A stretch of DNA of 64,000 nt, from positions 5,693-69,692 of the IMG/VR virus record IMGVR_UViG_3300006108_000015; one strand, 5' to 3'. Under the pieces are notes generated by a model. The model saw nothing but the letters and a program-made list of their open reading frames with translations, searched no databases and had not been told where the DNA came from. The position numbers and the translations under genes are program-made. Shown here piece after piece: positions 18,608 through 38,888 of the stretch (position 1 is its first letter; each line of letters begins with the position of its first letter). Source of the DNA: a virus.

Positions 18608-18609
18608 TT

Positions 18610-19902: not shown

Positions 19903-21080
19903 TTACGTACCCTAAGTAAATTAGCTTTTGCAAATTCCTTTCGATCAACCAATTTAGTTGGTTCGCCAGCATGATTAACTACAAATCCTTCAGGACCTGT
20001 TCTTTTACCATCAATGTGATGTTCCAAACCACCTTCATGTTGATTTAGTGTATTAACTAATACATCTTTAGCTTTCTGTAGATGATGATGAAGTTTCAAG
20101 ATATTTTCGTAATCTTCTTTATGTGAATCAATATGTTGTGTGTGATATTTCAATTCTGAGTTTTTACGTGATTGAGCAGCTGGAGTTTTTAATTTATCAA
20201 TTGCTTTTTTATACTTATCTGTAATATGTTTTTTTAAACCTTCAGCTGAAGGTTTTTCATCTGTTTTTATAGTATGATTAATATATGTTGCAAGATGACC
20301 TGTTTCACCTCCGTGAGGTTCTATCGTTTTATACATGTTTTTTTTGTGTTCATCATGTATCTTCTGTGCGGCAGTCATGTGATTATTGAATTCTTTTTGA
20401 TCAGATTCGGAATAATGAACTTGTTTTGTATCATGTGTTGGTGATTTTTGATACACATCAGGATGATGATTAAAATTATGCAAATCTGGATGTGGATCAG
20501 ATTTCATTGAATGAATATTATCACCATGATATTGAGTATGAGTTACAATACCAATTTTAGAATTTTTAATTCTATCAGCCTCTTCACCTTTAGCCGTATA
20601 TGTTATGGTATTAGGTGTGAAAGATACTTTTCCACCTTTTTCATGCTTCAAATCATCACCTGAATGCATGATATCACCTTGATAGACACCAGTTTTAGGT
20701 GCAACTTTTTTAAGGTGATTCAATGCTGCGTGTAATTTTTCCATGAGTCCTGGTGCATGACCATGATTTTTTTCAATATCTTCATGTGTGTAATTAATTT
20801 TTGGTGTCTTGTTAAATGCAGACTTACTTGCCACGAAAAACTTACCATTTTCTGGATGGTGACCGAATACAACAGCCGGTGAACCATCATATTTCATGGT
20901 TAGTGTTGAACTTTTATCACCAGATTTAATATGATTGTGAGCTTGTATCAATGCACCTTTGGTATGTTCAAAACCTTTTGATCCATGAAATATAGGACGA
21001 TCTTCAGCATGATGTATATGCTTGAGTTTACCATCTCCAGATTCTGTTTCCTCTTTAAGGAAACTTAAGAAAGACCGCAT
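19899..21080 (-). CDS. DUF6267-like protein with ATP-dependent ligase motifs
   Basis: KYDGSP, YQGD, EGFVV, KLVDR; start MRSFLSFLKE after GGAG. Confidence 0.7.
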   Translation of the reverse strand: MRSFLSFLKEETESGDGKLKHIHHAEDRPIFHGSKGFEHTKGALIQAHNHIKSGDKSSTLTMKYDGSPAVVFGHHPENGKFFVASKSAFNKTPKINYTHEDIEKNHGHAPGLMEKLHAALNHLKKVAPKTGVYQGDIMHSGDDLKHEKGGKVSFTPNTITYTAKGEEADRIKNSKIGIVTHTQYHGDNIHSMKSDPHPDLHNFNHHPDVYQKSPTHDTKQVHYSESDQKEFNNHMTAAQKIHDEHKKNMYKTIEPHGGETGHLATYINHTIKTDEKPSAEGLKKHITDKYKKAIDKLKTPAAQSRKNSELKYHTQHIDSHKEDYENILKLHHHLQKAKDVLVNTLNQHEGGLEHHIDGKRTGPEGFVVNHAGEPTKLVDRKEFAKANLLRVRK

Positions 21081-21137
21081 TGACTTTTCTCCAGATATGC
21101 AACACACTATGGTTGCTGATTTTCATTGTTACAGTCT

Positions 21138-21145
21138 TATTTATA
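21138..21145 (-). promoter_or_regulatory. T4-type late promoter heading the internal-protein cluster
   Basis: TATAAATA. Confidence 0.7.
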
Positions 21146-21201
21146 CAACTTTGAAGTTTCTATTTTTTTGACGTAGAAATCTTCAAACAAATACATAGTG
21201 G

Positions 21202-21729
21202 TCACAGAATTACATAACATCTTTGATATCCACACTTTGCAAATGTGATTTGACTACCAAACAATTCAGTTATTGCTCTTTTAGCACCTTCAAGTTCATA
21301 ATCATCAAACCACATAATACCACCTTTTACCATCATTGGTTTGAGGTAATTAATGCAGTCGATATATGACTTATACTGATCAACATCAATGTGAGCAAAT
21401 GCAATACTTGGCATTTCTACAGCACTTTTCGGAAATATACCTTGTACTACTTTAGCATAAGGTAATGCATCTCTGACTGCTTCAAAACTAGTATCTCCAA
21501 AGTCACCCACTTTATGTTTTTCATAATCCTCTCTGAAAGGAATACCAGTGAAAGTATCATACAAATAGATTTCTCTATTTTGTTTTTCTGCAAGTTCCGT
21601 CAAATATGATGCAGTACCACCTTTGTAAACACCAACTTCAACGAAACATCCTTCAGGAACATTACTTGCAGTTGCAACTAATTCTTTAATGATTCTAATA
21701 TCACCTACTGCTGATGGTAAATAATTCAT
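21202..21729 (-). CDS. TylF/MycF-family O-methyltransferase
   Basis: VEVGVYKGG, YDTFTG, HIDVDQY, FDDY. Confidence 0.85.
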   Translation of the reverse strand: MNYLPSAVGDIRIIKELVATASNVPEGCFVEVGVYKGGTASYLTELAEKQNREIYLYDTFTGIPFREDYEKHKVGDFGDTSFEAVRDALPYAKVVQGIFPKSAVEMPSIAFAHIDVDQYKSYIDCINYLKPMMVKGGIMWFDDYELEGAKRAITELFGSQITFAKCGYQRCYVIL

Positions 21730-21730
21730 T

Positions 21731-22450
21731 TTAAATCTCCAACTCTTTTACGTGAACTAGTTTTGATTTTCTGTTTAGATAATAGTGTCTTTCAAAATCA
21801 AACTCAACTGGTCTTCCATCCCAAACTCGCATATCTTCATCCCAACATACGATAGTTTCTTTATTCATCAAATCAGCAATGATACCGACTCCAGTAAATG
21901 TAGTAATAAACTTGTTAGGATTGGTCTTGATGATGAAACAATTATACATTAAATCTTTACTATAATCCAGATATGCTACTTTATTAGGATCTGGATTTGC
22001 ACCATTCTCCACAACATTAGTATTTCGTCTAGTATCAATAGTTGCATGATTCCATCTATCACCAATTATTACTTTATCAGTAAAACAATCAATATCTAAA
22101 TCTTGAACTTTTATTTCAAAAGAATCATCAACTTGAAAATCTAAATTGTAGTGATCTCTTAACCAGTTTTCATAACGACATGTTTCAATTGGTCTATTTG
22201 GATCAGTCTTATCTTCTCTTGTCCAAGAACTAAGATTTACATAATTACCATATGGTATAATATCATCATCAAAATTAACATCAGTAAACAAGTCCTGATA
22301 AAGTAGAAACTCTTTGATTCCATTAAACTTTTTCATTTCACTTCTTATAGTGAAATCTAATTTACCGTATGTATTCACTAATCCCGATATAACAGGAATA
22401 GCATTCATGAAATCGCCAAGATTTGCTGTACATTCAATTCTAACTTTCAT
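21731..22450 (-). CDS. putative glycosyltransferase (GT9-like N-terminus)
   Basis: NLGDFMNAIPVI and FTGVGIIA; glycan-cluster context. Confidence 0.45.
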   Translation of the reverse strand: MKVRIECTANLGDFMNAIPVISGLVNTYGKLDFTIRSEMKKFNGIKEFLLYQDLFTDVNFDDDIIPYGNYVNLSSWTREDKTDPNRPIETCRYENWLRDHYNLDFQVDDSFEIKVQDLDIDCFTDKVIIGDRWNHATIDTRRNTNVVENGANPDPNKVAYLDYSKDLMYNCFIIKTNPNKFITTFTGVGIIADLMNKETIVCWDEDMRVWDGRPVEFDFERHYYLNRKSKLVHVKELEI

Positions 22451-23240
22451 TGAAGTTCCTAAAAATAACAAATGGATCGTTTTCTTGAATTGGGTGAAGT
22501 TCAAATATATCTTTTTGGTATAGATATGCTAACAACATTAAAGTCTGGTCATCGTCAATCATATTTGCATCTGTAAGATTCTTAAATGCACCACGAATCA
22601 ATTCTTCTAACTTAGGCCACATTTCTTTACCTGCAATAATTTTAGCACCAAACATATGAACAATATTATTTGCAATAATAGTTTGAATAGGTTGACCTTG
22701 ATAATCTCTAAAATTAAAGAAATGTATTTTGTCAGTTGCAAATGGATATTTCCATTCTTTTACATCATTTAAAGTTTCTTTAGTTCTACAATATCCAAAA
22801 TCTAACCACGCAACAAGATCAGTATCTACAAAATTGTTCTGAATAGAAAAGTTTACCAAATGTGATTTTAGATAATTAACGAGAACATAATCAGCGGACC
22901 AGTATTCTGGATTCCTAACTTGCATTGGACTGATCATATTTTGAAAGTTTGGATTCTTCTGAATCTTAGAAATTAGGTCTCGTTCTTTTTGAAACGTGTT
23001 TGGAAAATCAATACTAATTATTTTAGTTTTAGTCATTTTATCTTTACGAATCTGGTAGACTTTATCTGCCAAATCTTCAGATGTAAAGATGACCATTTCA
23101 TTATCTAATTGTGCCAGATGGCCAAATCTTTCAAAATATGTATCAGTTGTTCTATGAAGATAGTGAGGAAGACCTTTCTCTGGAGTCCAGTTTCCTCTAC
23201 CTATGTCAAAGAAAGCAGTTACAATTGAGATATCACTCAT
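22440..23240 (-). CDS. HtrL/YibB (WlaTC)-family protein, putative glycosyltransferase
   Basis: IVTAFFDIGRGNW, AWLDFG, DDDQ. Confidence 0.8.
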   Translation of the reverse strand: MSDISIVTAFFDIGRGNWTPEKGLPHYLHRTTDTYFERFGHLAQLDNEMVIFTSEDLADKVYQIRKDKMTKTKIISIDFPNTFQKERDLISKIQKNPNFQNMISPMQVRNPEYWSADYVLVNYLKSHLVNFSIQNNFVDTDLVAWLDFGYCRTKETLNDVKEWKYPFATDKIHFFNFRDYQGQPIQTIIANNIVHMFGAKIIAGKEMWPKLEELIRGAFKNLTDANMIDDDQTLMLLAYLYQKDIFELHPIQENDPFVIFRNFNES

Positions 23241-24085
23241 TTGTATTTTGCCTCAATAGACTCTTTCCACTCAGGTACACGATCATATTGATGAACAATT
23301 GTGAATTCTTTGAACTTTGAAGTCAACACTTTGCCACCTAACCATTGTGGTTCTGCTTCCAATAGATTTGGACGGAATGAATCCATCTTAGAAGGATCAG
23401 CAACAGTACCTGCTTGACATGCCCAACCATCGCTTTGTTTTGCAAATAGAGTTACATCTTTGAATGGTTGAGTTTGAATCAATACATTGAATACTGCTTG
23501 ATCAACGATTCGAATTGGTCGTGATACTGAATTGAAGAAAATGTTAAATGCCAAATCTTTCATGTATTCGGCAGTACCACCTAGAGTACCTACATTATAG
23601 ATTTCATTTTCTTTGAAGATTTCATGAACATATGGACCATAGGTCTGCTTCAGATTATCATCACCCCATGCTTCATCTTTATATTTTAATGCTTCAGATC
23701 CAGCAACAAGTTTCTTGTCACCTAGATTTTCTTTGAGCCAGTCAATTGGATTCTTTTGGAAGATAACATCTTTAACATCAGTGGTAACAACATAATCATA
23801 CTCTTGCCATGTATCTTTGAGTAGATTGTAGATGTGGAAGAATCTCTCAATATGAATAGGTGCTGGTGTTTCATGTTTGAACATTTGTTCAGCATCATCT
23901 TGATCAAACACGATGACATTGAAACCAGAATCTGAGATTTTTTGAACGGTATCAAATGATGCGTTGAACACGATCATTACCTTGTCACCTTCAAACCCAC
24001 ATTGATTGACTGAGTTGATCCAAGGAGCAACTTTATCAAAATCATAATTTGTCATTGCACCAATAATTAAACTTTTCTTTTCCAT
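23237..24085 (-). CDS. putative GT-A glycosyltransferase
   Basis: TDVKDVIFQKNP, DQAVFN, HQYDR. Confidence 0.6.
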   Translation of the reverse strand: MEKKSLIIGAMTNYDFDKVAPWINSVNQCGFEGDKVMIVFNASFDTVQKISDSGFNVIVFDQDDAEQMFKHETPAPIHIERFFHIYNLLKDTWQEYDYVVTTDVKDVIFQKNPIDWLKENLGDKKLVAGSEALKYKDEAWGDDNLKQTYGPYVHEIFKENEIYNVGTLGGTAEYMKDLAFNIFFNSVSRPIRIVDQAVFNVLIQTQPFKDVTLFAKQSDGWACQAGTVADPSKMDSFRPNLLEAEPQWLGGKVLTSKFKEFTIVHQYDRVPEWKESIEAKYK

Positions 24086-24783
24086 GGGAATTCTCCATTA
24101 TATTTGTCATTCATAATTTTATTACCGTTTTCGAAAAACTCTTGAGTTACTGAGCCTTCATTTCCTGCTAATCTATAATTCACTGTATATTCACCAGTAC
24201 AATCAAATTGATTAAAATGTTGTGCTATGGTGTGTAAGAATACTCTATCTTGTCCCCAACCACCATGCCAAGCACTTGCTAATTTAGTTGCAACATCAGT
24301 TTTGATACAATATGTATTTGTATCAACATGATTCACTCCATGATATGTTGGCCACTTACCTAGTGATTCACAGTCATCATTACATATATATTCACCATTC
24401 TTATCACATATTTTTCTGAGAGAATAACACCAATCTAGATTTTTTGATTGAATAGTATCAACGCAAGATGCAACATGATTAGAATCAAACCAGTTATCTT
24501 GGTCCAAGTATAACACATAATCTGTATTAAGTAAATGGGTAAATGCAGCATAAACACGATGACCGTAGAATCCATTTGCACCAACATTAATTGGTAAATA
24601 ACAGATTTCTAAATTCTTATGGTGTCCTGCAATTAGTCTGGTCTTAGAATGAAACTTTCTACCATCTGCAACAACATAACATTTGGTCGGATATGACTGA
24701 GAAAGAACACTATCGATTGCCTGTTTAACTTCGTCTGAACCTGTTGTAGGTATAATCACTGTTGATGTCATAATAATATCCAA
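24067..24783 (-). CDS. glycosyltransferase family 2
   Basis: VIIPT, SVLSQ, VVADG, YLDQDN. Confidence 0.85.
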   Translation of the reverse strand: MDIIMTSTVIIPTTGSDEVKQAIDSVLSQSYPTKCYVVADGRKFHSKTRLIAGHHKNLEICYLPINVGANGFYGHRVYAAFTHLLNTDYVLYLDQDNWFDSNHVASCVDTIQSKNLDWCYSLRKICDKNGEYICNDDCESLGKWPTYHGVNHVDTNTYCIKTDVATKLASAWHGGWGQDRVFLHTIAQHFNQFDCTGEYTVNYRLAGNEGSVTQEFFENGNKIMNDKYNGEFPWKRKV

Positions 24784-25960: not shown

Positions 25961-27070
25961 TTATCTTATAATCTGAATATCTTTACCTGAAGTCCATACT
26001 TCAAGTTCTGTTCTTAATCTACCCTCTGATTTCAGAGTTTCGTATCTATTTATTGCTTTATTTCTCCACCATTCAACAATATTACTTAGATTATGTTTCT
26101 CATAATTTTCACCAGGAATTAATTTATCAGTTTTACATGCCATATAGTCTACCATATTTTTAAAACCATAATCACTAGTATAGTATCTTTTCTTTTCTGT
26201 TAAACTTTTAGCCGTTTCAATTGTATTTAAAAATTCATCACCTTCTTTAGTTCTTTTAAGTGCTGATTTAGTTAAAGCTATAATTTTAACAAAAATTCTA
26301 AGTTTTCTACTTGTTGTTGAAGTATCTCCTTCCAATATATCTCCAACACAACTTTCAACATAATCTTTTAGTTTATCATACGCATCACCATGTAACATAG
26401 GTACCATATCTGATTCTGTTAATCCTCTAAATCTAATATATGGTTTCATACCATCATATTGTGAAACACTCTTAGTGCTACCATATAAACTAGTGGTCTC
26501 AAATAAACATAAATTCATATTGTATTTTTTATTACACATCTCACGAACTTCGTGTGATGTACAAATTGCCGCTATAAGTTTACCGCCAAGATAATTATAT
26601 CCAAAAGGTTGAGAGGGTACGATCACAAATCCCATGATACTGGATGCATTAAATCTTTTAGATGTGTCTGGATTTTGAATCCATACATGACCTAATAGTT
26701 GATTTCTTGGTGCCATGTAAATCATTGGCGATCCCAATCGAATAAATCCTATAATCTTTCCTGTATTTTTTTCTCTAACAGCAAGTTGAATATTTTTACC
26801 AACCGGAGACTTATTCACATGTGAGGATGTAATACTGACTAATGTTTCCCATTGTTCGTTTGGTATCTCACATACTTCAATATCCATATCTTTTGGATGC
26901 ATAGTGAAATCTGAAAACAAATCATCCTCAGGAGGAAATAAAGATGAAGGAATAGATTGTACATGTTTTAATTTCTCTTCACGCATGTACTGTTCAATAG
27001 AACCAGTGTTCTCAAAATAATCTTTGAACATTTTGGCACAGTGTAATGCCTCATCCCTTGATAACATCAT
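25961..27070 (-). CDS. DUF4338 / DruA-like protein
   Basis: VPSQPFGYNYLGGKLIA, ETTSLYG..SQYDG. Confidence 0.65.
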   Translation of the reverse strand: MMLSRDEALHCAKMFKDYFENTGSIEQYMREEKLKHVQSIPSSLFPPEDDLFSDFTMHPKDMDIEVCEIPNEQWETLVSITSSHVNKSPVGKNIQLAVREKNTGKIIGFIRLGSPMIYMAPRNQLLGHVWIQNPDTSKRFNASSIMGFVIVPSQPFGYNYLGGKLIAAICTSHEVREMCNKKYNMNLCLFETTSLYGSTKSVSQYDGMKPYIRFRGLTESDMVPMLHGDAYDKLKDYVESCVGDILEGDTSTTSRKLRIFVKIIALTKSALKRTKEGDEFLNTIETAKSLTEKKRYYTSDYGFKNMVDYMACKTDKLIPGENYEKHNLSNIVEWWRNKAINRYETLKSEGRLRTELEVWTSGKDIQIIR

Positions 27071-29812: not shown

Positions 29813-30808
29813 TTATTTCTTTCTCTTTTTTTTATCTACTGTAACATGTTCTTCCATATACACACCGGGTGCCAAATGTGTAGTCTGTTTAACAATATCT
29901 TCTTCAGGTTCTTGAACAATAGTATTTGCAACAGGTTCAGTATCGAACATTTCAATAGTTTTGTCAACCTCAAGTTCTCCAGATTCTTTTAATTTTTCAA
30001 GAATGACTTCTTCATCTGGTGATAGTTTAGGTAGTTCATCATTATGAATTTCTTCTACTTGTTGTTGTGCCTGTTGTATTTGATCTTCTGATAATGGACC
30101 ATCATCTCGTTCGTAATTAACTTGAGTTTGTTGAGATAGTTTTTCATCTTCTTTTTGCTTTAGTGAAATGTTAGCGGCAATTAACAATAAAACTGCAAGA
30201 GGATCAAATACTGCCATGATCAACATAATAACTAAACGAACAGCCTTATCAATAGAATCGCTTGATGTGCCATAAACCAACTCAGCAACATACTTAATTG
30301 GTCCAACTTCAACTGAAAGTGAATTAGATTCTTTGATTAGAGGTAATCTATCTTTAGCAATCTTTCTTAATTCTCTTTGTACATCTTGAATTTGATTGTC
30401 TAGTTTATTACTTGCTGTAGATGGATCTTTAGCACGAGCAAGAAGATAATTTAATTTATCATTTGCTAGTTTTTCTTGTTGATTAAGAGCAGTTAAGTCT
30501 GCTTGATTTGCACCTAGATCAATAGTTGAATTGATATGTGATTTGGCCAAGAAACCAAATATACCCATACTAGTAATGAACATTAAGGTTACAACAGCAG
30601 CCGAAAGATAACTCTTAAGTAAAACTGGAGCAGTTCTCCAATTACGATACAACCAAGATGCTGTGACTAGTTTACTCATCTCTAGTACAGAACCCATGAA
30701 AACGACTGGCCAAAATGCACCAGTGAAGATTGAAGCAAGTCCAATAACTGAGTAATATGCCGCTATTCCTGACAATAATATTGCCGATAGAAATGTTAGG
30801 TATATCAT
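29813..30808 (-). CDS. multi-pass membrane protein with coiled coil and acidic tail
   Basis: Three N-terminal hydrophobic helices; VFDPLAVLLLIAAN. Confidence 0.65.
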   Translation of the reverse strand: MIYLTFLSAILLSGIAAYYSVIGLASIFTGAFWPVVFMGSVLEMSKLVTASWLYRNWRTAPVLLKSYLSAAVVTLMFITSMGIFGFLAKSHINSTIDLGANQADLTALNQQEKLANDKLNYLLARAKDPSTASNKLDNQIQDVQRELRKIAKDRLPLIKESNSLSVEVGPIKYVAELVYGTSSDSIDKAVRLVIMLIMAVFDPLAVLLLIAANISLKQKEDEKLSQQTQVNYERDDGPLSEDQIQQAQQQVEEIHNDELPKLSPDEEVILEKLKESGELEVDKTIEMFDTEPVANTIVQEPEEDIVKQTTHLAPGVYMEEHVTVDKKKRKK

Positions 30809-33345
30809 GAGAAGAAGTCCTCGAGTGTGTTTTGTTTTTCGGTTTTCCAACCAATACAGTCTAATATGATTTTCAATGGTTCGACAAATGCTTTCTCAAA
30901 TTGAATATTATAATCTATATATTGGTCCATGTCAAATTCTTTTGGTAATCTAGAAGGGTATGAAATTACGGTATTCTTAAGAGGATTTGGCATTTTCAAA
31001 TACGCAAACTTGATCTTCTCACCTTCTTGTATAAGTGGATACTTTTTTGTAAGATTCTTTTCTTTTAGAAAATGATTATATAATATTGCACCCTTAACGT
31101 GAATCGGCGTTGAAGGTTTGTATAAAGTAAGTGCATCTGAATATTTATTCAATCCATTAAGTCCACGAGGAAAAGAAATATCTTCTGGTGGTAGACTATT
31201 AAATTTTATCTTAAAGTCCGCAATGAACTGTTGAATATCTATCTCAGTTCCTTCCATCATAATCTTGATTGATTCTGCCATTTTGTGCCGAATAACTTGT
31301 GGAGTGGATGACTTAATCATCTCTAGACCCATGACTTTTAAGTCTGGTTCTTTATATCTCACACCTTCATTATCAAAAACATTCAGAATGTATCGTTTCT
31401 TTGCAGTCCAAATACCTTTGTTTGCCAATGCTTCACGCTTCATTTGCATTTTTTGGTCGTATGCGTGAACGTAATCAGCAAGTTCCTGAAAACTCTTATC
31501 AATATATGGTTGAATCTTATCCTCACAAATCTTATCCATGAGGGTGATAACCTTTTCAGTTGTCTGTTCTTTTTCAAACATCCTATTAATAAGAGGACCA
31601 AGATGGAGATAAATTGAATCTGTGTCTGAGGCGATAACATAATCATGTTCCGTTTTCAAAAGTTTATTTAAATAATCATTTAACTTCGCTTCAATCCAAC
31701 GAATAGATAATTTACCTGCCATCGTAACAGCCAGTGCCATACGCAAATCATAAAATCTAAAGTATTGAGAACCTAATGCACCATAAGCAGAATTCAGTGA
31801 AACTTTCTTTGCTAACTGAATGTTGTTATATTTTGCAATATTCTTTGAAATCTCATACTTTTTATTATCATCCGATTCGTTTTCGTATTCTTGCTTTGCT
31901 TTCAACATCAACTTCTTAAACTTCTTTCGATCTTCATACATCTCTTCTAACATCTTTGGTAGAAAACCTTGAACGTCAGTTCTGAAAAATTGACCATTAG
32001 GTGTTAATGTAACATTAGTGAGTCTGAAAGTGTCTACATGTTTCATTAACAGTTCATCAACAGAAACACCAGAAGAAAGAATTTCACGCATTTCATTCGT
32101 ATAGTTTTGTGGGTCAATCAAAGTTTCCGGTGAGATATTATATTGCATCATCAAATGAGGATATAGACTGTTCAAGTCAAATGATGCAACCCAATCATAC
32201 ATTCCAGGTACAGGCTCTTTAACATATGCACCTTCAAATGCAGAATCTTTTTCTTGAATCTCTCGTGGTGGAACAATGATGTTTTTATTCAGAAGATATG
32301 AATATGTCATTGCATCCCACATTCTAGTTTGTGCAAAGACATCTTCAAAGTTAGACTTGGTATCATAAGCAAGAGTAATTGCTAATTCTACAAGTTTTAA
32401 CTTATCCTCGAGTTTAAGAATGAGTTCAACGTCTTTAATATTATATTCAATAAACTTCTGAAAGTTTAAACGATACAAAGAATGAAGATTATCATATTCA
32501 TCATATGATAATTTGCTCTCACCGAGTTCAACATTAGCAATACTATCTAACTTGTAAGATTCTTGTGATTTACCGCCAGGTGCATACCATTTGTATAGTT
32601 CGATATAATCTAAAGAAGATACACCCATCAAATCATATGATGTGAGTTTTCGACCATTATTTGCGTTGACTACTCTTTCACCAATATAATTCCAAGGAGA
32701 TAGTTTCTTGGCCTCATCTTCGCCAACTATTTTTCTAAATCGATTGACGAGATAAGGAATATCAAAGAACTTTGTATTCCAACCGGTGATAATATCTGGA
32801 CATTTTGCTTCCCACAGAGCAAGGAATTTCTTACATAAAGAATATTCATCTTTACACTTTACATAAATCTCATCTTCTTTTGCTTTGTAGTCTCCACAAC
32901 CAAAAACATAAGGTTTGATATCACCAAAATACTTAATAGTGATTGCTGTGATGGGTTCGTTAGCAAGATATGGATCTGGAAATCCATTCTCTGATCCGAC
33001 CTCAATATCGATTACACCAACAAGAACTTTCTCAACATCATAGTCAACCATTTCTCGATGTTGATCTGCAATGAAGGCATACTCGAATCGAGTTTGACCA
33101 TATATCTTTGGTGCATTATCTATATCTTTGAATTTTTTGACATATTCTCGTGCATCATTAATAGAGTCAAAAGTTTTCTCATCAAGATATTCACCAAGCA
33201 ATGATGTGATGTTGGTTACTTTTTTGGAAGGAATATAGAGTGAAGGAGAATAATCAATTCTCAATTTCACTCTTTTACCATTGTTGACTCCTCGATAAAG
33301 AATCTTATTACCGAAGGATTGTACATTCGTATAGAATTTTGACAT
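30805..33345 (-). CDS. 43: family B DNA polymerase
   Basis: DIEV exo I, SFDLNSLYP, KVSLNSAYG, SDTDS. Confidence 0.97.
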   Translation of the reverse strand: MSKFYTNVQSFGNKILYRGVNNGKRVKLRIDYSPSLYIPSKKVTNITSLLGEYLDEKTFDSINDAREYVKKFKDIDNAPKIYGQTRFEYAFIADQHREMVDYDVEKVLVGVIDIEVGSENGFPDPYLANEPITAITIKYFGDIKPYVFGCGDYKAKEDEIYVKCKDEYSLCKKFLALWEAKCPDIITGWNTKFFDIPYLVNRFRKIVGEDEAKKLSPWNYIGERVVNANNGRKLTSYDLMGVSSLDYIELYKWYAPGGKSQESYKLDSIANVELGESKLSYDEYDNLHSLYRLNFQKFIEYNIKDVELILKLEDKLKLVELAITLAYDTKSNFEDVFAQTRMWDAMTYSYLLNKNIIVPPREIQEKDSAFEGAYVKEPVPGMYDWVASFDLNSLYPHLMMQYNISPETLIDPQNYTNEMREILSSGVSVDELLMKHVDTFRLTNVTLTPNGQFFRTDVQGFLPKMLEEMYEDRKKFKKLMLKAKQEYENESDDNKKYEISKNIAKYNNIQLAKKVSLNSAYGALGSQYFRFYDLRMALAVTMAGKLSIRWIEAKLNDYLNKLLKTEHDYVIASDTDSIYLHLGPLINRMFEKEQTTEKVITLMDKICEDKIQPYIDKSFQELADYVHAYDQKMQMKREALANKGIWTAKKRYILNVFDNEGVRYKEPDLKVMGLEMIKSSTPQVIRHKMAESIKIMMEGTEIDIQQFIADFKIKFNSLPPEDISFPRGLNGLNKYSDALTLYKPSTPIHVKGAILYNHFLKEKNLTKKYPLIQEGEKIKFAYLKMPNPLKNTVISYPSRLPKEFDMDQYIDYNIQFEKAFVEPLKIILDCIGWKTEKQNTLEDFFS

Positions 33346-33651
33346 TTAACCCGTGATGAGTTGTTTTGAAGGAAGAACAATACCTGATCCAAAGATTTGA
33401 TTATAATTATTGATGAAATCTTCAGCAGGAACATAAGAGTATACTACAGAACTCTTAGGAATATCAATCACTGAATCTTTCTTTTGTTCTGCATGAAGGG
33501 GGAAGGGAGTTAGTCCAACATTAGGTTGTCCATTTTGTCCTCGAACAACTGCAATACCTACTGGATTTTTAATTGAATATGATGTTGAATCGTTCATCAA
33601 CTCACCTAAAACATCTTCACCACTAGTTAATTTAAAAACTTGAATATTCAT
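33346..33651 (-). CDS. Sm-like-fold hypothetical protein
   Basis: MNIQVFKLTSGEDV; start corrected to exclude the tRNA. Confidence 0.65.
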   Translation of the reverse strand: MNIQVFKLTSGEDVLGELMNDSTSYSIKNPVGIAVVRGQNGQPNVGLTPFPLHAEQKKDSVIDIPKSSVVYSYVPAEDFINNYNQIFGSGIVLPSKQLITG

Positions 33652-33673
33652 AATAACCTCATAATATAAAAAA

Positions 33674-33747
33674 TGGAGCGGAATACCAGAATCGAACTGG
33701 TGACCGAACCTTGGCAAGGTCCCGTTATACCATTTAACTAATTCCGC
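33674..33747 (-). tRNA. tRNA-Gly(GCC)
   Basis: Cloverleaf, loop TT-GCC-AA, encoded CCA. Confidence 0.9.
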
Positions 33748-33794
33748 AATTGAACTATTATAATATCATATTATATATGATTTGTCAATATATT

Positions 33795-34274
33795 TTATGC
33801 TGCTCTTGATAGAATCTCTTTCATCCTATCTGCACAATAACTTGCAGCAAATGCTTTAGGTTTGACCATAGGATATACATTACAAGTTCCTCGAATATAT
33901 CCTATTGCTTGTTGAACTACACATGAACTTCCGTGCATCTCATTTGGATTAATATCTAAATGCACTTCAACATGATAGTCTTCAACAATATCTGCTATAT
34001 TTTGAAATAGTTCAGATACTTTATAGACTTCATTCATCAATCGCATTGCAGGTTTATCTTTGCGTTGATCGAAATCTCTTTCTCGTGTTGTTTCACCAAA
34101 TACTTTACAACCATTGCAGGCGTTAATATGAACTACGATAGCAACAGTATAATCAGCATACCATTCGTCATCTATAATTAATCTTTCAGAATCGGCTCCT
34201 AGATAGATTTTGGTATCAGGTCCTTGTTTAGAAATAAAATCTCTAACTTCTTCAAAATTAATTCTTTTGTTCAT
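33795..34274 (-). CDS. RNase H-like YkuK-family protein
   Basis: IYLGADS, RLMNEV, VHLDIN, AASYCAD. Confidence 0.8.
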   Translation of the reverse strand: MNKRINFEEVRDFISKQGPDTKIYLGADSERLIIDDEWYADYTVAIVVHINACNGCKVFGETTRERDFDQRKDKPAMRLMNEVYKVSELFQNIADIVEDYHVEVHLDINPNEMHGSSCVVQQAIGYIRGTCNVYPMVKPKAFAASYCADRMKEILSRAA

Positions 34275-34298
34275 ACTAACACCTTTTTTAAAACAATA

Positions 34299-34370
34299 TT
34301 ACTTAGTTGCGATATACATTGTGACTTCAAATCCAAAACGCAAATCGGTTGCTTGAGGTGTTGTCCACAT
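34299..34370 (-). CDS. pqqA: pyrroloquinoline quinone precursor peptide PqqA (23 aa)
   Basis: Not in ORF track. MWTTPQATDLRFGFEVTMYIATK with W-x-x-P and GFEVTMY (E-x3-Y); AAGGAGA RBS 7 nt upstream. Confidence 0.92.
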   Translation of the reverse strand: MWTTPQATDLRFGFEVTMYIATK

Positions 34371-34493
34371 AGTCATTCTCCTTGTTGATAAAGTATGTAA
34401 TCAAAATGATCACATATAAGTATCTTATAAGAAAATCGAAGAAATTACAACGTAAACACACTTAAACACTAGTCACGATTTTCATGAGTTGGG

Positions 34494-34566
34494 CTACGAA
34501 GGAGGGACTTGAACCCCCAACCTACGGTTTTGGAGACCGTTGCTCTGCCAATTGAGCTACTCCGTA
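34494..34566 (-). tRNA. tRNA-Trp(CCA)
   Basis: Cloverleaf, loop CT-CCA-AA, G73; followed by CCC rather than CCA. Confidence 0.85.
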
Positions 34567-34583
34567 ATTATTACTAATATTTA

Positions 34584-34853
34584 TCAATCTCTTGGAGGAT
34601 ATAGACCTTGAATCGCAATAATTTCTCTAGGTTGACCTTCATGCCATGGTACTTTATGTCCAGTAGCATCGGTTGGACGCAAATCAGGTAAAGCAAATGT
34701 TGTTTTACCATCACCACCATACACATTACCTAACAAAGAATATAATGCTACATTTTGTTGAATTTGAAGTAGTCTACCATCACAGTCAGCAAATCCGATT
34801 GGAGTAAACATGCCTGCAAATTTAATAATCGTTGCCAAATAGATATCCATCAT
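34584..34853 (-). CDS. stand-alone phage tail-collar-domain protein
   Basis: GFADCDGRLLQI.QN.ALYSLLG..YGGDG.TTFALPDLR. Confidence 0.8.
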   Translation of the reverse strand: MMDIYLATIIKFAGMFTPIGFADCDGRLLQIQQNVALYSLLGNVYGGDGKTTFALPDLRPTDATGHKVPWHEGQPREIIAIQGLYPPRD

Positions 34854-34865
34854 AATCTCCCTATA

Positions 34866-35357
34866 TTAATGTTGATGTGTTTCAAAAGTTTTATCAAATT
34901 GATTCTGTGCATCCTCAAAACCAGGTTCTACAATTACCCACACTCTAGTTCCTTTAGGTACAACAAATGAATCTAGCATGATAGTGTTAGTGTCTGCGGT
35001 ATTAACACCTGTCATTCTACGATTTGGTGGCATCCAATAGCAATTTCCTGCTGGAGCAACAAGAGGTTCAGCACCTTCCATATATAGTGTCATTTCACCC
35101 GATACTACACAAGTTTGACCACCGTAAGGATGCATGTGAATTGGACTGCGTGTACCTTTTTGTCTTACTGTACGACTGGTGATAAGTTCCATACCGTTAA
35201 GACCTTCTGTAGCATCTAGAACTCTAGTCTCGAACATACTCTTACTAGGTGTCATTGGAGGAACTTGACCATTAATTTTGTTACCCATAATGTCTACTGC
35301 TGGATTGGCGTGAGCAAAAGTAGATAATAATACTAATGATAATAATACTTTTTTCAT
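34866..35357 (-). CDS. secreted cupin-domain protein
   Basis: MKKVLLSLVLLSTFAHA signal peptide; PIHMHP..G..CVVSGE. Confidence 0.75.
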   Translation of the reverse strand: MKKVLLSLVLLSTFAHANPAVDIMGNKINGQVPPMTPSKSMFETRVLDATEGLNGMELITSRTVRQKGTRSPIHMHPYGGQTCVVSGEMTLYMEGAEPLVAPAGNCYWMPPNRRMTGVNTADTNTIMLDSFVVPKGTRVWVIVEPGFEDAQNQFDKTFETHQH

Positions 35358-35386
35358 AATTAAACTCCTATTCTTAAACAATATTT

Positions 35387-35462
35387 TGGTGGGTTGTGAC
35401 GGGTTCGAACCGCCGACCATCGCCGTGTAAAGGCGGTGCTCTACCAACTGAGCTAACAACCC
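35387..35462 (-). tRNA. tRNA-Val(TAC)
   Basis: Cloverleaf, CCA end. Confidence 0.92.
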
Positions 35463-35468
35463 AAATTT

Positions 35469-35556
35469 TGGCGGAGACTGTGAGATTCGAACTCACGATA
35501 CCTTTCGGTATGACGGTTTAGTAGACCGTTGGTTTCAGCCGCTCACCCAAGTCTCC
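35469..35556 (-). tRNA. tRNA-Ser(ACT)
   Basis: Long variable arm, G73-CCA, stem ACGGT/ACCGT, loop CT-ACT-AA. Confidence 0.85.
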
Positions 35557-35557
35557 G

Positions 35558-35965
35558 TTAAGTTTCACAATGCATTGATACTACAGTAAGACCTACACCA
35601 TTAGCAACAACACCTTCACGAAGTAGATATTCTTTTTGTACACCATATGCTTGTCTTTCTAATGCTAAACTATTTTCACAAGACTTATCATTAAACATTC
35701 CATTTTTAAATTGAAGATAATGAACCATCTCATGTAGTATGATACTATCTGCAACTTCATTTGTCAAGTCTAATGAATCTAATATGTATATATTTTCACC
35801 GCCAGTTTCTGGAAACCATCCGGCAACTTTACAATTCATACTACCATAACATACATGGTCTACAAAGAATTGTTTGGGCATTAAAACGAGATTGGGAACA
35901 TTTTCGGAATGTAGATTACTCAAAATTACAGCATAACTAAAAAGTATTGCTACTAGAGTATCCAC
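35558..35965 (-). CDS. putative exported HExxH protein
   Basis: Hydrophobic N-terminus; ILHEMVHYLQ; E.QAY. Confidence 0.6.
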   Translation of the reverse strand: MDTLVAILFSYAVILSNLHSENVPNLVLMPKQFFVDHVCYGSMNCKVAGWFPETGGENIYILDSLDLTNEVADSIILHEMVHYLQFKNGMFNDKSCENSLALERQAYGVQKEYLLREGVVANGVGLTVVSMHCET

Positions 35966-35990
35966 AGTTTTTATCCTTTTTAGTGTGGAG

Positions 35991-36064
35991 TGGAGCGGAA
36001 TATCAGAATCGAACTGATGTCGAAAGATTGGAAATCTCTAGTTTTACCATTAAACTAATTCCGC
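35991..36064 (-). tRNA. tRNA-Gly(TCC)
   Basis: Cloverleaf, CCA end. Confidence 0.9.
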
Positions 36065-36068
36065 AATT

Positions 36069-36147
36069 TGGCTCCGGACAAGAGAATCGAACTCTTCTAA
36101 CCAGTGATTAACAGTCACGCCCATGCACCTTGCTCGGGTTTTCCGGA
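36069..36147 (-). tRNA. tRNA-Asn(GTT), atypical D arm
   Basis: Loop CT-GTT-AA, G73-CCA. Confidence 0.75.
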
Positions 36148-36154
36148 ATTGAAA

Positions 36155-36739
36155 CTAATAACTTTTACCTTCTTGATAACGAACTTTTCTGTAATGCCTT
36201 CCGTTACCTTTATTTGCACCTTTATATGTTGGTGTTTGTGAATGACAATTTGGACAGATTAGTGATAAGTTTTCTAAATGATTGTTTTCAGAATTACCAT
36301 CAATATGTTCCAATTCCATAACTATGGATTTATTATTCCATTCAGTTATATCACATGTCCAACATTTATTACCATAATTTTTTAACAGATATCTTTTTAA
36401 TGTTCTGTGAGAGGCTTTACCATTTTTAACAGATTGATGTAGATTAAAATCTTTTTGACACTGTATCGAACAATATTTCCTTAGTTTACCAAATATTTGT
36501 TTTGAACAACTTAAACATTTTATTGTTAATTTTTCTTTCAATAAATTATTGAATGTTGTAGCACATGATCTCGAACAAAATTTATTATTTCTTTTTTCAT
36601 AACTATGTTGATTATTACAATGTTTACATATTTTAGGTAACAGATAATATTGTTCCTTATCTCTTAAACTTTTTAATCTAAGATTCTCTTTAAACTTTAA
36701 AGCACCTAATTTACCTGCTTCACTTTTGGTCATAGACAC
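36155..36739 (-). CDS. HNH endonuclease with Zn-finger repeats
   Basis: ELEHIDGN..NN...NL..ICPNCH; several CxxC. Confidence 0.88.
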   Translation of the reverse strand: MSMTKSEAGKLGALKFKENLRLKSLRDKEQYYLLPKICKHCNNQHSYEKRNNKFCSRSCATTFNNLLKEKLTIKCLSCSKQIFGKLRKYCSIQCQKDFNLHQSVKNGKASHRTLKRYLLKNYGNKCWTCDITEWNNKSIVMELEHIDGNSENNHLENLSLICPNCHSQTPTYKGANKGNGRHYRKVRYQEGKSY

Positions 36740-36769
36740 AATCGAACTCCTAAATATTTTATATATTAG

Positions 36770-36777
36770 TATTTATA
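36770..36777 (-). promoter_or_regulatory. T4-type late promoter for HNH gene
   Basis: TATAAATA. Confidence 0.65.
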
Positions 36778-36804
36778 ATAATTCGATTTTATAATACAGC
36801 AAGA

Positions 36805-36889
36805 TGGTGCCCCCTGAGTGAATCGAACACTCTCTATCTTTCGAAGCCGGATTACAAATCCGGTGCCATCCCATTCGGCGCAAAGGGGC
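36805..36889 (-). tRNA. tRNA-Tyr(GTA)
   Basis: Loop TT-GTA-AT, long variable arm, ACCA end. Confidence 0.82.
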
Positions 36890-36913
36890 GTAAAACTTTT
36901 ACAACATTAAAAC

Positions 36914-36989
36914 TGGTGGAGGATAACGGGATCGAACCGATGACCTATAGCTTGCAAAGCTACCGCTCTCCCATCTGAGCTAATCCCCC
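36914..36989 (-). tRNA. tRNA-Ala(TGC)
   Basis: Cloverleaf, G3:U70, ACCA end. Confidence 0.92.
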
Positions 36990-37038
36990 ACAATAAAAAC
37001 AATATTAACACACTTGTATATATATGTCAACAAATTTT

Positions 37039-37123
37039 TGGTGCTCAGGGTCGGACTCGAACCGACACGCTGTTAAGCAATGGCTTCTAAGACCATCGTG
37101 GCTACCAGTTACACCACCTGAGC
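37039..37123 (-). tRNA. tRNA-Leu(TAG)
   Basis: Loop CT-TAG-AA, long variable arm, ACCA end. Confidence 0.88.
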
Positions 37124-37130
37124 ATTACAC

Positions 37131-37208
37131 TGGTCTCCGATGAGAGATTTGAACTCCCGTTATTCTTCATCCCAAATGAAGTGCCATACCAGGCTAGGCG
37201 AATCGGAG
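37131..37208 (-). tRNA. tRNA-Pro(TGG)
   Basis: Loop TT-TGG-GA, ACCA end. Confidence 0.88.
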
Positions 37209-37216
37209 ATAAAACT

Positions 37217-37306
37217 TGGCGGAAGTGGTAGGATTCGAACCCACGATAGGTTTCCCTATGCTTGATTTCAAGTCAAGTGCATTCAGCCAGACTCTGCCAC
37301 ACTTCC
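37217..37306 (-). tRNA. tRNA-Ser(TGA)
   Basis: Loop CT-TGA-AA, long variable arm, GCCA end. Confidence 0.9.
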
Positions 37307-37312
37307 TAAAAC

Positions 37313-37711
37313 TTATGTACCTCTATAATATTTGGATCTAGGTCTACCTTTCTTTATGTTTGCGCCTTTCCAAGTTGCCGTTAAAGCATGACAATTTGGA
37401 CATAATAATTTTAAATTATCTTCTTTATTATTTGTAAAATCGCCATCAATATGTTCTAACTCTAATGGAATCTTATTTGTGAATTGATTAACTTTAGACC
37501 AACCACATTCACAACAAGAATTATTAAACTTTTCAAACAAATATTTTCTAATATGATGTGATGTTGAAGTTTTTCCACGCATACCATCATGATTATTTAA
37601 TTTCCACTCAGTAATAAATTGTTTATATCTATAATCATTTTGACATTTTGAATTACAATATTTCCTATCATCGGATTCAAAATGTTTATCACAACTTAAA
37701 CAATTACTCAT
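37313..37711 (-). CDS. HNH endonuclease
   Basis: PLELEHIDGD..NN...NL.LLCPNCH. Confidence 0.88.
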   Translation of the reverse strand: MSNCLSCDKHFESDDRKYCNSKCQNDYRYKQFITEWKLNNHDGMRGKTSTSHHIRKYLFEKFNNSCCECGWSKVNQFTNKIPLELEHIDGDFTNNKEDNLKLLCPNCHALTATWKGANIKKGRPRSKYYRGT

Positions 37712-37738
37712 TTGTGTAAATCTCCTATGTTATACATA

Positions 37739-37746
37739 TATTTATA
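37739..37746 (-). promoter_or_regulatory. T4-type late promoter for HNH gene
   Basis: TATAAATA. Confidence 0.65.
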
Positions 37747-37779
37747 ACGGCAGTGTTTTACACAGATGCTTTTTAAACT

Positions 37780-38301
37780 TTACTTCTTATAACTTTTCTT
37801 CCAAAGTATAGGTTTCTTTTCCATTTTATACTTATCTGGATTACTTATCCCTTTGAAAACTTTCCACAACTTCTCTTCTAAAATAAATTTCTTGAGTAAT
37901 CCATATTCTACACCATGTGCTTCAATTTCCCATGGTCTAAAATAATAATATATTTTTTCTGGATCAACTTGAGTGCCTTTCCAGTTTGTTAAAAACGCAT
38001 TAAGTTCACCTAATGCATATTGTTTTATATGCACCATTTCATGTGCAAGGGTTTCAAATATTCTATCAGCACCTATTGTACCGTCAACTTTAATAATAAA
38101 CTTTTTAGGTTTACTAATTCTTTTAAAGTCATCAATAATGGCTTCACCCATGTCTTCCATTTTATCAAAGAACATAAGAGTGATCGATAACGACTTCATT
38201 AATTCTTTATCATCAAATAATAAATCACCAAAAAACTTTACAGCACGAATAGTAAATGGTTCAAAATCTTTATCAGGACAATTAATAACAGATATTTTCA
38301 T
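37780..38301 (-). CDS. HExxH metallopeptidase-like protein
   Basis: TLAHEMVHIKQY...PWEIEA. Confidence 0.7.
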   Translation of the reverse strand: MKISVINCPDKDFEPFTIRAVKFFGDLLFDDKELMKSLSITLMFFDKMEDMGEAIIDDFKRISKPKKFIIKVDGTIGADRIFETLAHEMVHIKQYALGELNAFLTNWKGTQVDPEKIYYYFRPWEIEAHGVEYGLLKKFILEEKLWKVFKGISNPDKYKMEKKPILWKKSYKK

Positions 38302-38708
38302 TCTATATATTCAACTTTTACATTACACTTAGTGAGAAAATCTAAACCATCATCTGTTCTATATTTCTGTTTATAATACACTTTACTAATACCTGATGTA
38401 TATATCATCTTCGCACAATGAATACACGGAGCATGGGTACAAAACATTACAGCATCTTGACCCGATTCTGAAGATTTGGCCAACTTTGCTATTGCATTTG
38501 CTTCAGCATGAATTACTTCATCTTTGGTTACTGTTCCATTTTCACACTCACATTCATTGGTCCATCCAGAAGGCATACCATTATAACCGATAGAAATGAT
38601 TCTATCATCTTTTACAATAATAGCGCCAACTTGAAGGCGTTTTGCAGTAGATAACTGAGAGAATCTGACTGCACAATCCATAAATGCTTCTATAAATTTA
38701 GTTTTCAT
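38298..38708 (-). CDS. cd: dCMP deaminase
   Basis: GYNG, HAEANAI, PCIHC. Confidence 0.92.
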   Translation of the reverse strand: MKTKFIEAFMDCAVRFSQLSTAKRLQVGAIIVKDDRIISIGYNGMPSGWTNECECENGTVTKDEVIHAEANAIAKLAKSSESGQDAVMFCTHAPCIHCAKMIYTSGISKVYYKQKYRTDDGLDFLTKCNVKVEYIE

Positions 38709-38718
38709 AATATATATT

Positions 38719-38795
38719 TGGTGGGCCCACTAGGACTTGAACCTAGGACCAAAGGATTATGAGTCCTCTGCTCTAACCAACTGAGCTATGAGCCC
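38719..38795 (-). tRNA. tRNA with CAT anticodon, most like Ile2 (lysidine) type
   Basis: TAGCTCAGTTGGTTAGAGCA..GACTCATAATC resembles bacterial tRNA-Ile2; elongator Met not excluded. Confidence 0.8.
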
Positions 38796-38809: not shown

Positions 38810-38888
38810 TCTGCCAGGAGGGACTCGAACCCACATACTCCATTTACTCGGTTAATGACGGTTTAGAAGACCGTTGAGATACTGGCAG
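38810..38888 (-). ncRNA. D-armless tRNA-like RNA with TCT (Arg) anticodon loop
   Basis: 7-bp acceptor CTGCCAG/CTGGCAG, anticodon arm and TTCGAGT T loop, only 7 nt in place of the D arm. Confidence 0.6.

Follow-up and report, generated by a model that had tools for sequence, protein, structure and literature searches.

Why would a phage carry the gene for the precursor peptide of PQQ? The question is raised by an open reading frame (ORF) of 72 nt in a 64,000-nt stretch of viral DNA, referred to here as the window, which covers bases 5693-69692 of a linear virus record in IMG/VR; the record is 69,692 bp long and its completeness is put at 42%. In PQQ synthesis, the radical-SAM enzyme PqqE acts on the peptide PqqA as presented by PqqD; the later steps to PQQ depend on a protease, PqqB and PqqC, and every PQQ made costs one peptide. 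Methanol dehydrogenases, on which abundant aquatic methylotrophs such as OM43 and LD28 rely for energy, use PQQ as their cofactor.

The pqqA open reading frame

The ORF and its ribosome-binding site (RBS) are as follows:
34299..34370, minus strand: pqqA ORF, 23 codons and a TAA stop, encoding the PQQ precursor peptide (PF08042, TIGR02107)
34383-34378, minus strand: Shine-Dalgarno sequence AAGGAG, 7 nt before the ATG at 34370

A 23-codon PqqA ORF with a strong RBS had been predicted at 34299-34370, with no strand given. The ORF is real and intact and lies on the minus strand, where 34370-34299 (stop included) reads MWTTPQATDLRFGFEVTMYIATK; the plus-strand translation of the same interval is unrelated to PqqA. 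Start codon, RBS at 7-nt spacing, uninterrupted frame and TAA stop are all present, as expected of a translatable gene. A second in-frame ATG (34376-34374) would give a peptide of 25 aa, and it is this form that is called as a gene by IMG, where it stands as a singleton cluster among ~15 billion proteins. Since that ATG sits 1 nt from the Shine-Dalgarno sequence, the 23-aa form is the likely product. A scan of positions 33300-35000 gave 8 promoter-like sites against 9.0 expected, none of them directly upstream of pqqA, and no terminators.

Family membership is clear from curated models. The 23-aa peptide scored 42.0 bits (E 8.3e-11) against Pfam PF08042 PqqA, which has a cut-off of 21.1, and 37.2 bits against the NCBIfam equivalog TIGR02107, which has a cut-off of 20; both models were aligned over their full length and exceeded at about twice the cut-off. 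A further PqqA HMM, built from bacterial peptides, was run with filters off over the window and 80 related loci; of the 34,510 stop-to-stop frames in these with a length of 15 aa or more, it matched the ORF alone (56 bits). The W-x-x-P and E-x3-Y features that had led to the prediction can be read in the translation as W2-x-x-P5 and E16-V-T-M-Y20. The Glu-Tyr pair of PqqA, here Glu16 and Tyr20, is reportedly cross-linked by PqqE.

The phage and its relatives

Among the ORFs of the window with 80 aa or more, nearly every long, non-nested one runs on the minus strand. Matches to PHROG and Pfam include a major head protein (54330-55652), portal and tail sheath, DnaB-like and UvsW-like helicases, an SbcC-like nuclease, UvsX, ribonucleotide reductase and dCMP deaminase, together with the gene that served as the anchor for finding relatives:
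30805..33345, minus strand: T4-type family B DNA polymerase (phrog_262, 1070.9 bits)

Of 600 pattern matches in IMG/VR, 593 were confirmed by their DNA polymerase as relatives, and the best 80 of these (67-91% identity) were kept. As the polymerase has no cultured relative above ~51%, the record is, by its gene content, a fragment of a T4-like myophage from a clade without a cultured member. Its capsid protein is closest to that of the OM43 phage Melnitz (66.6%), with next-best matches (~62-65%) that include a Stenotrophomonas phage, cyanophages and pelagiphages. A cyanophage identity of the clade is unlikely because psbA was absent from five related records (three of them 92-98% complete) as well as from the window's own record. 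DNA near-identical to the record occurs in two runs labelled as freshwater metagenome. One of them may be the source of the contig, and in the other, which belongs to a different study, 84% of the words sampled from an 8-kb region are present; no RNA run was among the sequencing runs listed with near-identical DNA.

The site of insertion

The neighbourhood of pqqA consists of the following features:
33674..38795, minus strand: tRNA array of 11 tRNAs (ARAGORN) interspersed with two HNH endonuclease genes; the variable region that holds pqqA
34490..34567, minus strand: tRNA-Trp(cca), the upstream border (ARAGORN; Rfam tRNA, 67.6 bits)
34292..34502, minus strand: inserted cassette of ~200 nt, comprising a 119-nt leader, RBS, pqqA and stop; absent from relatives
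33795..34274, minus strand: RNaseH-like gene, 159 aa, the downstream border (PF04308 RNaseH_like, 59.5 bits; phrog_11311)

The edges of the cassette are sharp. Homology to the relatives in blastn ends at ~34503, at the 3' end of tRNA-Trp, and restarts at ~34293, at the RBS of the RNaseH-like gene, the ATG of which lies 24 nt past the pqqA stop. Homologues of the RNaseH-like gene (64-71% identity) are present in 13 of the best 80 relatives, and in 11 of these 13 a tRNA-Trp(cca) ends 13-24 nt before the RNaseH-like ATG; the corresponding gap in the window is 215 nt. In the two exceptions, a tRNA called as Ile lies 20 nt away and the gene follows 370 nt after a tRNA-Asp, respectively. The cassette has the same orientation as all the surrounding phage genes. 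On both sides these are viral, with the tRNA array and HNH genes upstream and the RNaseH-like and DNA polymerase genes downstream, collinear with the 80 viral relatives. All Rfam matches in the window were to tRNAs, and the 119-nt leader gave no match to a known RNA motif.

No PqqA-like frame was found in the fetched loci of the best 80 relatives (polymerase 67-91% identical), which extend upstream of the polymerase by 1,100 nt or more in 59 cases, by 2,000 nt or more in 48 and by 5,000 nt or more in 29. In addition, PF08042 had no match at E up to 1 in five whole related records, three of which are 92-98% complete. The stretch between dCMP deaminase and polymerase varies strongly among relatives in its content of genes and tRNAs, and HNH endonucleases occur there.

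In a FastTree tree of the polymerase, which has SH-like support values only, the window falls inside the 80-row clade, and its 79 clade-mates lack pqqA. The T4-like phages that do carry pqqA (contigs L069/L040 and L118, and Melnitz) fall outside this clade; the join between L118 and Melnitz runs a long-branch risk and is possibly false. An ancestral pqqA upstream of the polymerase was rejected on the basis of these positions. Because the relatives lack pqqA and the window sits inside their clade, pqqA is, on this comparison of sequences, a lineage-specific gain into a variable tRNA/HNH region. No donor was found: the homology of the cassette to other pqqA loci is limited to the ORF and ~20-30 nt, and, of 66 bases compared, the ORF shares 53 with its best nucleotide match, a viral locus, and 50 with the best one from bacteria.

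A general habit of T4-like phages of carrying pqqA beside tRNAs was considered and rejected, since none of the 20 listed T4-like pqqA-bearing IMG/VR loci has any tRNA; among the T4-like pqqA loci compared, a tRNA is found in those of Melnitz and the window only.

Three other features of the array were seen. A weak twelfth tRNA (38810-38888, minus strand) scored 32.9 bits in Rfam against a gathering score of 29 and was not reported by ARAGORN. A 197-aa cupin ORF with a TTG start (34866-35459, minus strand) overlaps tRNA-Val (35387-35462), so that its true start is probably further downstream. An 89-aa ORF (34584-34853, minus strand) corresponds to a phage tail-collar domain that stands alone within the tRNA array.

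PQQ pathway genes in the record

The original prediction had noted that there is no pqqBCDE in the window, and this holds across the 69.7-kb record. No pqqB, pqqC, pqqD or pqqE was found by tblastn in the whole 69,692 bp, with ~58% of the genome lying outside the record, and HMM searches of the record for pqqE, pqqC, pqqB and PqqD were all negative. The pqq operon that provided the tblastn queries (PqqB, C, D and E) lies in a GenBank record named 'Acinetobacter phage MD-2021a' whose DNA is in fact bacterial chromosome. They were sensitive enough, since the same queries detected pqq genes (32-79% identity) in 47 of the 120 bacterial pqqA loci listed. Nor did an HMM search of the record (PQQ_2 dehydrogenase repeat) reveal a PQQ-dependent dehydrogenase. 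The pqqA of the window is therefore not linked to pqqBCDE; such linkage is not obligatory in the family, as the copies of Methylophilaceae are mostly unlinked.

Under the name 'Acinetobacter phage MD-2021a' there is a 144-kb record (CAKLQF020000010.1) with ppk, pqqB, pqqC, pqqD, a pqqE-like radical SAM gene and a dipeptidase, which looks like a bacterial chromosome under a phage name.

pqqA in other phages

A short-query tblastn search across phage genomes had also been proposed. When the window peptide was compared with 50,697 phage records, 12 were matched. Nine of them are cultured phages of Methylophilales/Methylophilaceae (P19250A, MEP301, Venkman, four Melnitz records, MEP401 and MEP402); the other three are an uncultured podovirus from a spring and two 'Acinetobacter phage' contigs that contain ppk and pqqBCDE and are bacterial. 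All six phage loci that were read (Melnitz, P19250A, MEP301, Venkman, MEP402 and the podovirus) have an intact ORF of 23-24 aa with an AGGA-type RBS. In the GenBank annotation of these same six records (five cultured phages and the podovirus), pqqA is absent or lies under a hypothetical CDS on the opposite strand.

A wider set was obtained from IMG/VR with a degenerate pattern back-translated from the RFGFEVTMY core, which matched at least 120 contigs. All 120 contigs listed have an intact PqqA frame (48 distinct peptides), although broken copies are invisible to a pattern that depends on an intact core. By shared ORFs, using best-reference assignment and Louvain communities, the 120 listed loci fall into Venkman-like (42), P19250A-like (20), T4-like (20) and MEP402-like (5) groups, with 33 unassigned. 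Single-linkage clustering was dropped since mosaic genes merged 108 of the loci together. None of the 120 listed viral loci has pqqB-E, in contrast to the 47 of 120 bacterial loci listed.

At the 13 codons outside the search pattern, pN/pS was 0.31 (pS 0.48, pN 0.15) over 108 distinct nucleotide sequences. Judged by this ratio, orphan pqqA is kept by purifying selection in at least four unrelated phage groups, and its recurrence across phage lineages argues for selection rather than accident.

The setting of the gene differs from phage to phage. In Melnitz (MZ577097.1, 76100-76205) an intact 24-aa pqqA ORF with its own RBS, ~10 nt upstream of a tRNA-Leu, lies opposite the hypothetical CDS MelnitzEXVC044M_152, which has probably been called on the wrong strand. 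In Venkman, P19250A and MW202481, which are sipho- or podovirus genomes, pqqA occupies a gap between annotated genes; that of Venkman is antisense to both flanking genes and that of P19250A lies between converging gene blocks. A GC-rich, hairpin-like sequence follows pqqA in all three, where the gene looks like a stand-alone moron with its own terminator. Among IMG/VR contigs of T4-like and other myoviruses (L102, L075, L094, L114 and L122) the contexts of pqqA also differ: in L102 it adjoins the major head protein gene, and in L069 and L040 it is upstream of the polymerase. Such variety points to several separate insertions.

Bacterial PqqA peptides and the likely host

The RFGFE(V/I)TMY form of the peptide had been taken to point to Betaproteobacteria, including Methylophilaceae. 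As stated, this was not supported by a wider search. The RFGFEVTMY-core pattern matched at least 120 bacterial loci when run against one genome per GTDB species, and the matches listed are mostly from Methylophilaceae, Methylococcales and Methylophaga, with a few from Burkholderiales and others, including Cycloclasticus and Arcobacter MAGs. As it is present in Methylococcales, Methylophaga, some Burkholderiales and others, the core is, on its distribution among these sequences, a methylotroph-type PqqA rather than a Methylophilaceae signature. Moreover, the variant of the window, with D-L before the core and Y-I after it, was present in none of 151 Methylophilaceae-family genomes. The best bacterial matches to the window peptide among the 120 listed are from a Ferrovum MAG (19/23), a Methylotenera MAG (18/23) and Paraburkholderia terricola (18/23); the commonest Methylophilaceae peptide matches at 17/23 and differs at 6 positions.

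Methylophilaceae carry the gene many times over. PqqA matches above cut-off were found in all of 101 genomes of the family of Ca. Methylopumilus universalis, 479 in total and two or more in 98 of the 101; even the genomes of 1.2-1.4 Mb in this Methylophilaceae family have 2-3 each. By comparison, pqqE was present in 41 of 41 Methylophilaceae-family genomes, mostly once. A 1.3-Mb genome of Ca. Methylopumilus universalis (G010) has pqqA at 416, 457 and 1,186 kb and pqqE at 578 kb, all three pqqA copies being > 100 kb from pqqE. Three copies in so streamlined a genome suggest strong selection on the dosage of the precursor, and many unlinked pqqA for about one pqqE in Methylophilaceae fit a precursor that is consumed and limits by dosage. 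These counts agree with those in the passages on PQQ genes of Beck et al. (2014, PMC4109929), where Methylophilaceae have 3-12 pqqA copies and a single pqqBCDEFG. According to passages in PMC9851590, the rate of PQQ synthesis is tracked by pqqA expression, and in a cell-free study cited there added PqqA peptide led to PQQ at 70-80%.

The host of the phage must be a PQQ-synthesising proteobacterium, and is probably a beta- or gammaproteobacterial methylotroph, with Methylophilaceae as a candidate family.

Proposed role and alternative explanations

Taken together, the ORF is probably a functional pqqA, an auxiliary metabolic gene by which a lytic T4-like freshwater myophage would feed PQQ synthesis in its host; this reading is drawn from sequence. 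The phage peptide would be translated during infection and bound by host PqqD, host PqqE would cross-link Glu16 to Tyr20, and the host protease, PqqB and PqqC would complete PQQ. Since one peptide would be destroyed for each PQQ and the enzymes reused, the phage would supply the sole component that is stoichiometrically consumed, presumably the part that runs out once host transcription stops. In this way the phage copy could maintain or increase the PQQ available to periplasmic dehydrogenases, such as those for methanol, alcohol or glucose, and the maintained dehydrogenases could keep up the energy supply for phage replication.

Cyanophage psbA (D1) is a precedent, as are similar auxiliary genes for high-turnover components: what the phage provides is the part of a host pathway that is consumable or quickly lost, and everything else is left to the host. 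By analogy with psbA, pqqA of the window would supply the consumable part only, and it is plausible that substrate alone sustains PQQ-dependent dehydrogenases. The two differ in that psbA encodes a full enzyme subunit, whereas pqqA encodes a chemically consumed substrate and, at 72 nt, is far smaller. PQQ itself is a stable cofactor, and a need for new PQQ within one latent period is an assumption.

The absence of pqqA from the 80 closest relatives means that the gene may be a recent passenger, and that its conservation within its own lineage is not demonstrable. Illegitimate recombination in the hypervariable tRNA region could have brought in a copy with no role, or none yet, which has stayed intact through its youth and its size of 72 nt. 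Its absence also from the five whole related records, the variability of the region between dCMP deaminase and polymerase with its HNH endonucleases, and the many dispersed pqqA copies that hosts offer for capture are all as such an origin would predict. It is nevertheless unlikely that the gene is neutral. It is not a fresh copy of any sampled donor (best nucleotide matches of 53/66 and, for bacteria, 50/66), its GC3 of 0.32 is in line with a phage GC of 0.34, it retains a consensus RBS at ideal spacing, and orphan pqqA appears to be under purifying selection in at least four unrelated phage groups.

A peptide made to inhibit rather than to feed the pathway is a good deal less probable. Such a decoy would bind host PqqD or PqqE non-productively or flood the pathway, stopping PQQ synthesis or radical-SAM consumption, or it might act as a signal. 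That the window peptide departs from the commonest Methylophilaceae form at 6 of its 23 residues, and that its exact sequence is unique among ~15 billion proteins, could be taken in this sense. Against this, neither of the two cross-link residues nor any part of the family core has been lost, and the two commonest viral peptides (23 and 19 of the 120 listed) are letter-for-letter those of host Methylophilaceae, as is expected of a substrate and not of an inhibitor.

That pqqA is an artefact of host contamination, of chimeric assembly or of an attachment-site remnant of a host pqqA is hardly credible: the gene is tiny and two matched GenBank 'phage' records are bacterial chromosome with pqqABCDE, but the phage genes on both sides are collinear with relatives and meet the cassette at clean junctions, most of the words sampled from the 8-kb region (84%) recur in the freshwater run of the other study, the phage is of T4-like lytic type with no integrase seen among the ORFs scanned, and there is no near-identity to any bacterial pqqA. 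Contamination was rejected specifically on the absence of pqqB-E from the record and the 120 listed viral loci (compared with 47 of 120 bacterial loci), and an attachment-site remnant on the lack of a near-identical bacterial pqqA.

Comparison with known systems

Phage pqqA as such is already published. PqqA is named for the Lake Baikal viral population VP_266 in passages of Coutinho et al. (2020, Microbiome, PMC7678222, and its preprint), with a proposed role in supporting methanol dehydrogenase in methylotroph hosts, which bears out the remark in the original prediction that viral pqqA had been mentioned in freshwater metagenomes. As far as these passages go, the window resembles VP_266 in having a freshwater phage-borne pqqA read as an auxiliary metabolic gene. 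Compared by that description, VP_266 differs in encoding methanol dehydrogenase and in having been assigned to Methylophilaceae hosts, whereas no PQQ-dependent dehydrogenase was found for the window; in addition, the T4-like clade of the window is otherwise without pqqA. In passages of a 2026 reservoir-sediment study (PMC13188868), pqqA, pqqE and pqqD are among the virus-encoded genes.

The cultured Methylophilales phages (Melnitz, Venkman, MEP301, MEP401/402 and P19250A) likewise carry the ORF as an orphan: it is 23-24 aa long, has an RBS of its own and is not accompanied by pqqB-E. Their peptides are 65-74% identical to that of the window and are of the Methylophilaceae E-M...Y-V type, in contrast to D-L...Y-I in the window; the phages belong to other lineages (sipho-, podo- and myoviruses), have other insertion sites and have known hosts. 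In Melnitz, unlike in the window, pqqA is ~72 kb from the polymerase, beside tRNA-Leu. The chromosomal orphan pqqA genes of Methylophilaceae, as treated in passages of PMC4109929, are likewise stand-alone and unlinked to pqqBCDE, and the extra copies imply that precursor dosage matters. However, those copies are chromosomal and host-regulated, whereas the copy in the window is viral and diverged (17/23 to the common host peptide).

The main texts on Melnitz (PMC9004378), MEP401/402 (PMC10580990), MEP301 (PMC8024684) and Venkman (PMC8163748) do not mention PQQ biosynthesis or pqqA in phage, and nothing on the presence of pqqA in the cultured methylophages or on its breadth across lineages was found in the titles, abstracts and passages of literature on phage or auxiliary-metabolic pqqA. 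What may be undescribed is the clean insertion, its place in a T4-like clade otherwise without pqqA and the broad, unannotated recurrence of the gene across lineages.

A more general proposal can be put forward tentatively, as something that could hold but is open to considerable doubt: pqqA may be a hallmark gene, convergently and repeatedly captured by phages that infect PQQ-dependent methylotrophs. At 69-75 nt it may then be the smallest auxiliary metabolic gene, and the sole one whose product is a consumed substrate rather than an enzyme, and the window would be a fresh, base-pair-delimited gain, perhaps one that accompanied a move to a PQQ-dependent host. In that case orphan pqqA could be used as a marker for host prediction, and C1 cycling in lakes and oceans would generally involve control by phages over the supply of a cofactor. 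If phages do top up the PQQ precursor, a step in aquatic C1 metabolism is tuned by a gene of 72 nt that standard annotation misses. What the window contributes is an insertion with clear-cut ends and a case from a T4-like clade without a cultured member. The idea of a phage pqqA that serves the host pathway is directly testable because the gene is present in cultured phage-host pairs, among them Melnitz or Venkman with OM43 H5P1 and P19250A with IMCC19250. The medium published for OM43 (PMC9004378) includes 1 nM PQQ, an amount that could hide an effect of phage pqqA.

Other genes in the window

Two further loci stand out. A 369-aa protein (25961-27070, minus strand) matches the Druantia DruA domain (PF14236, 36.2 bits, cut-off 27), a defence-system domain in a phage of lytic type. 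At 16775-24783 (minus strand) there is a cluster resembling those for glycan or surface modification, with a cytidylyltransferase fusion (610 aa), DUF6267, a TylF-type methyltransferase, HtrL_YibB and a family 2 glycosyltransferase; near it are two large ORFs (430 and 491 aa) with no Pfam family.
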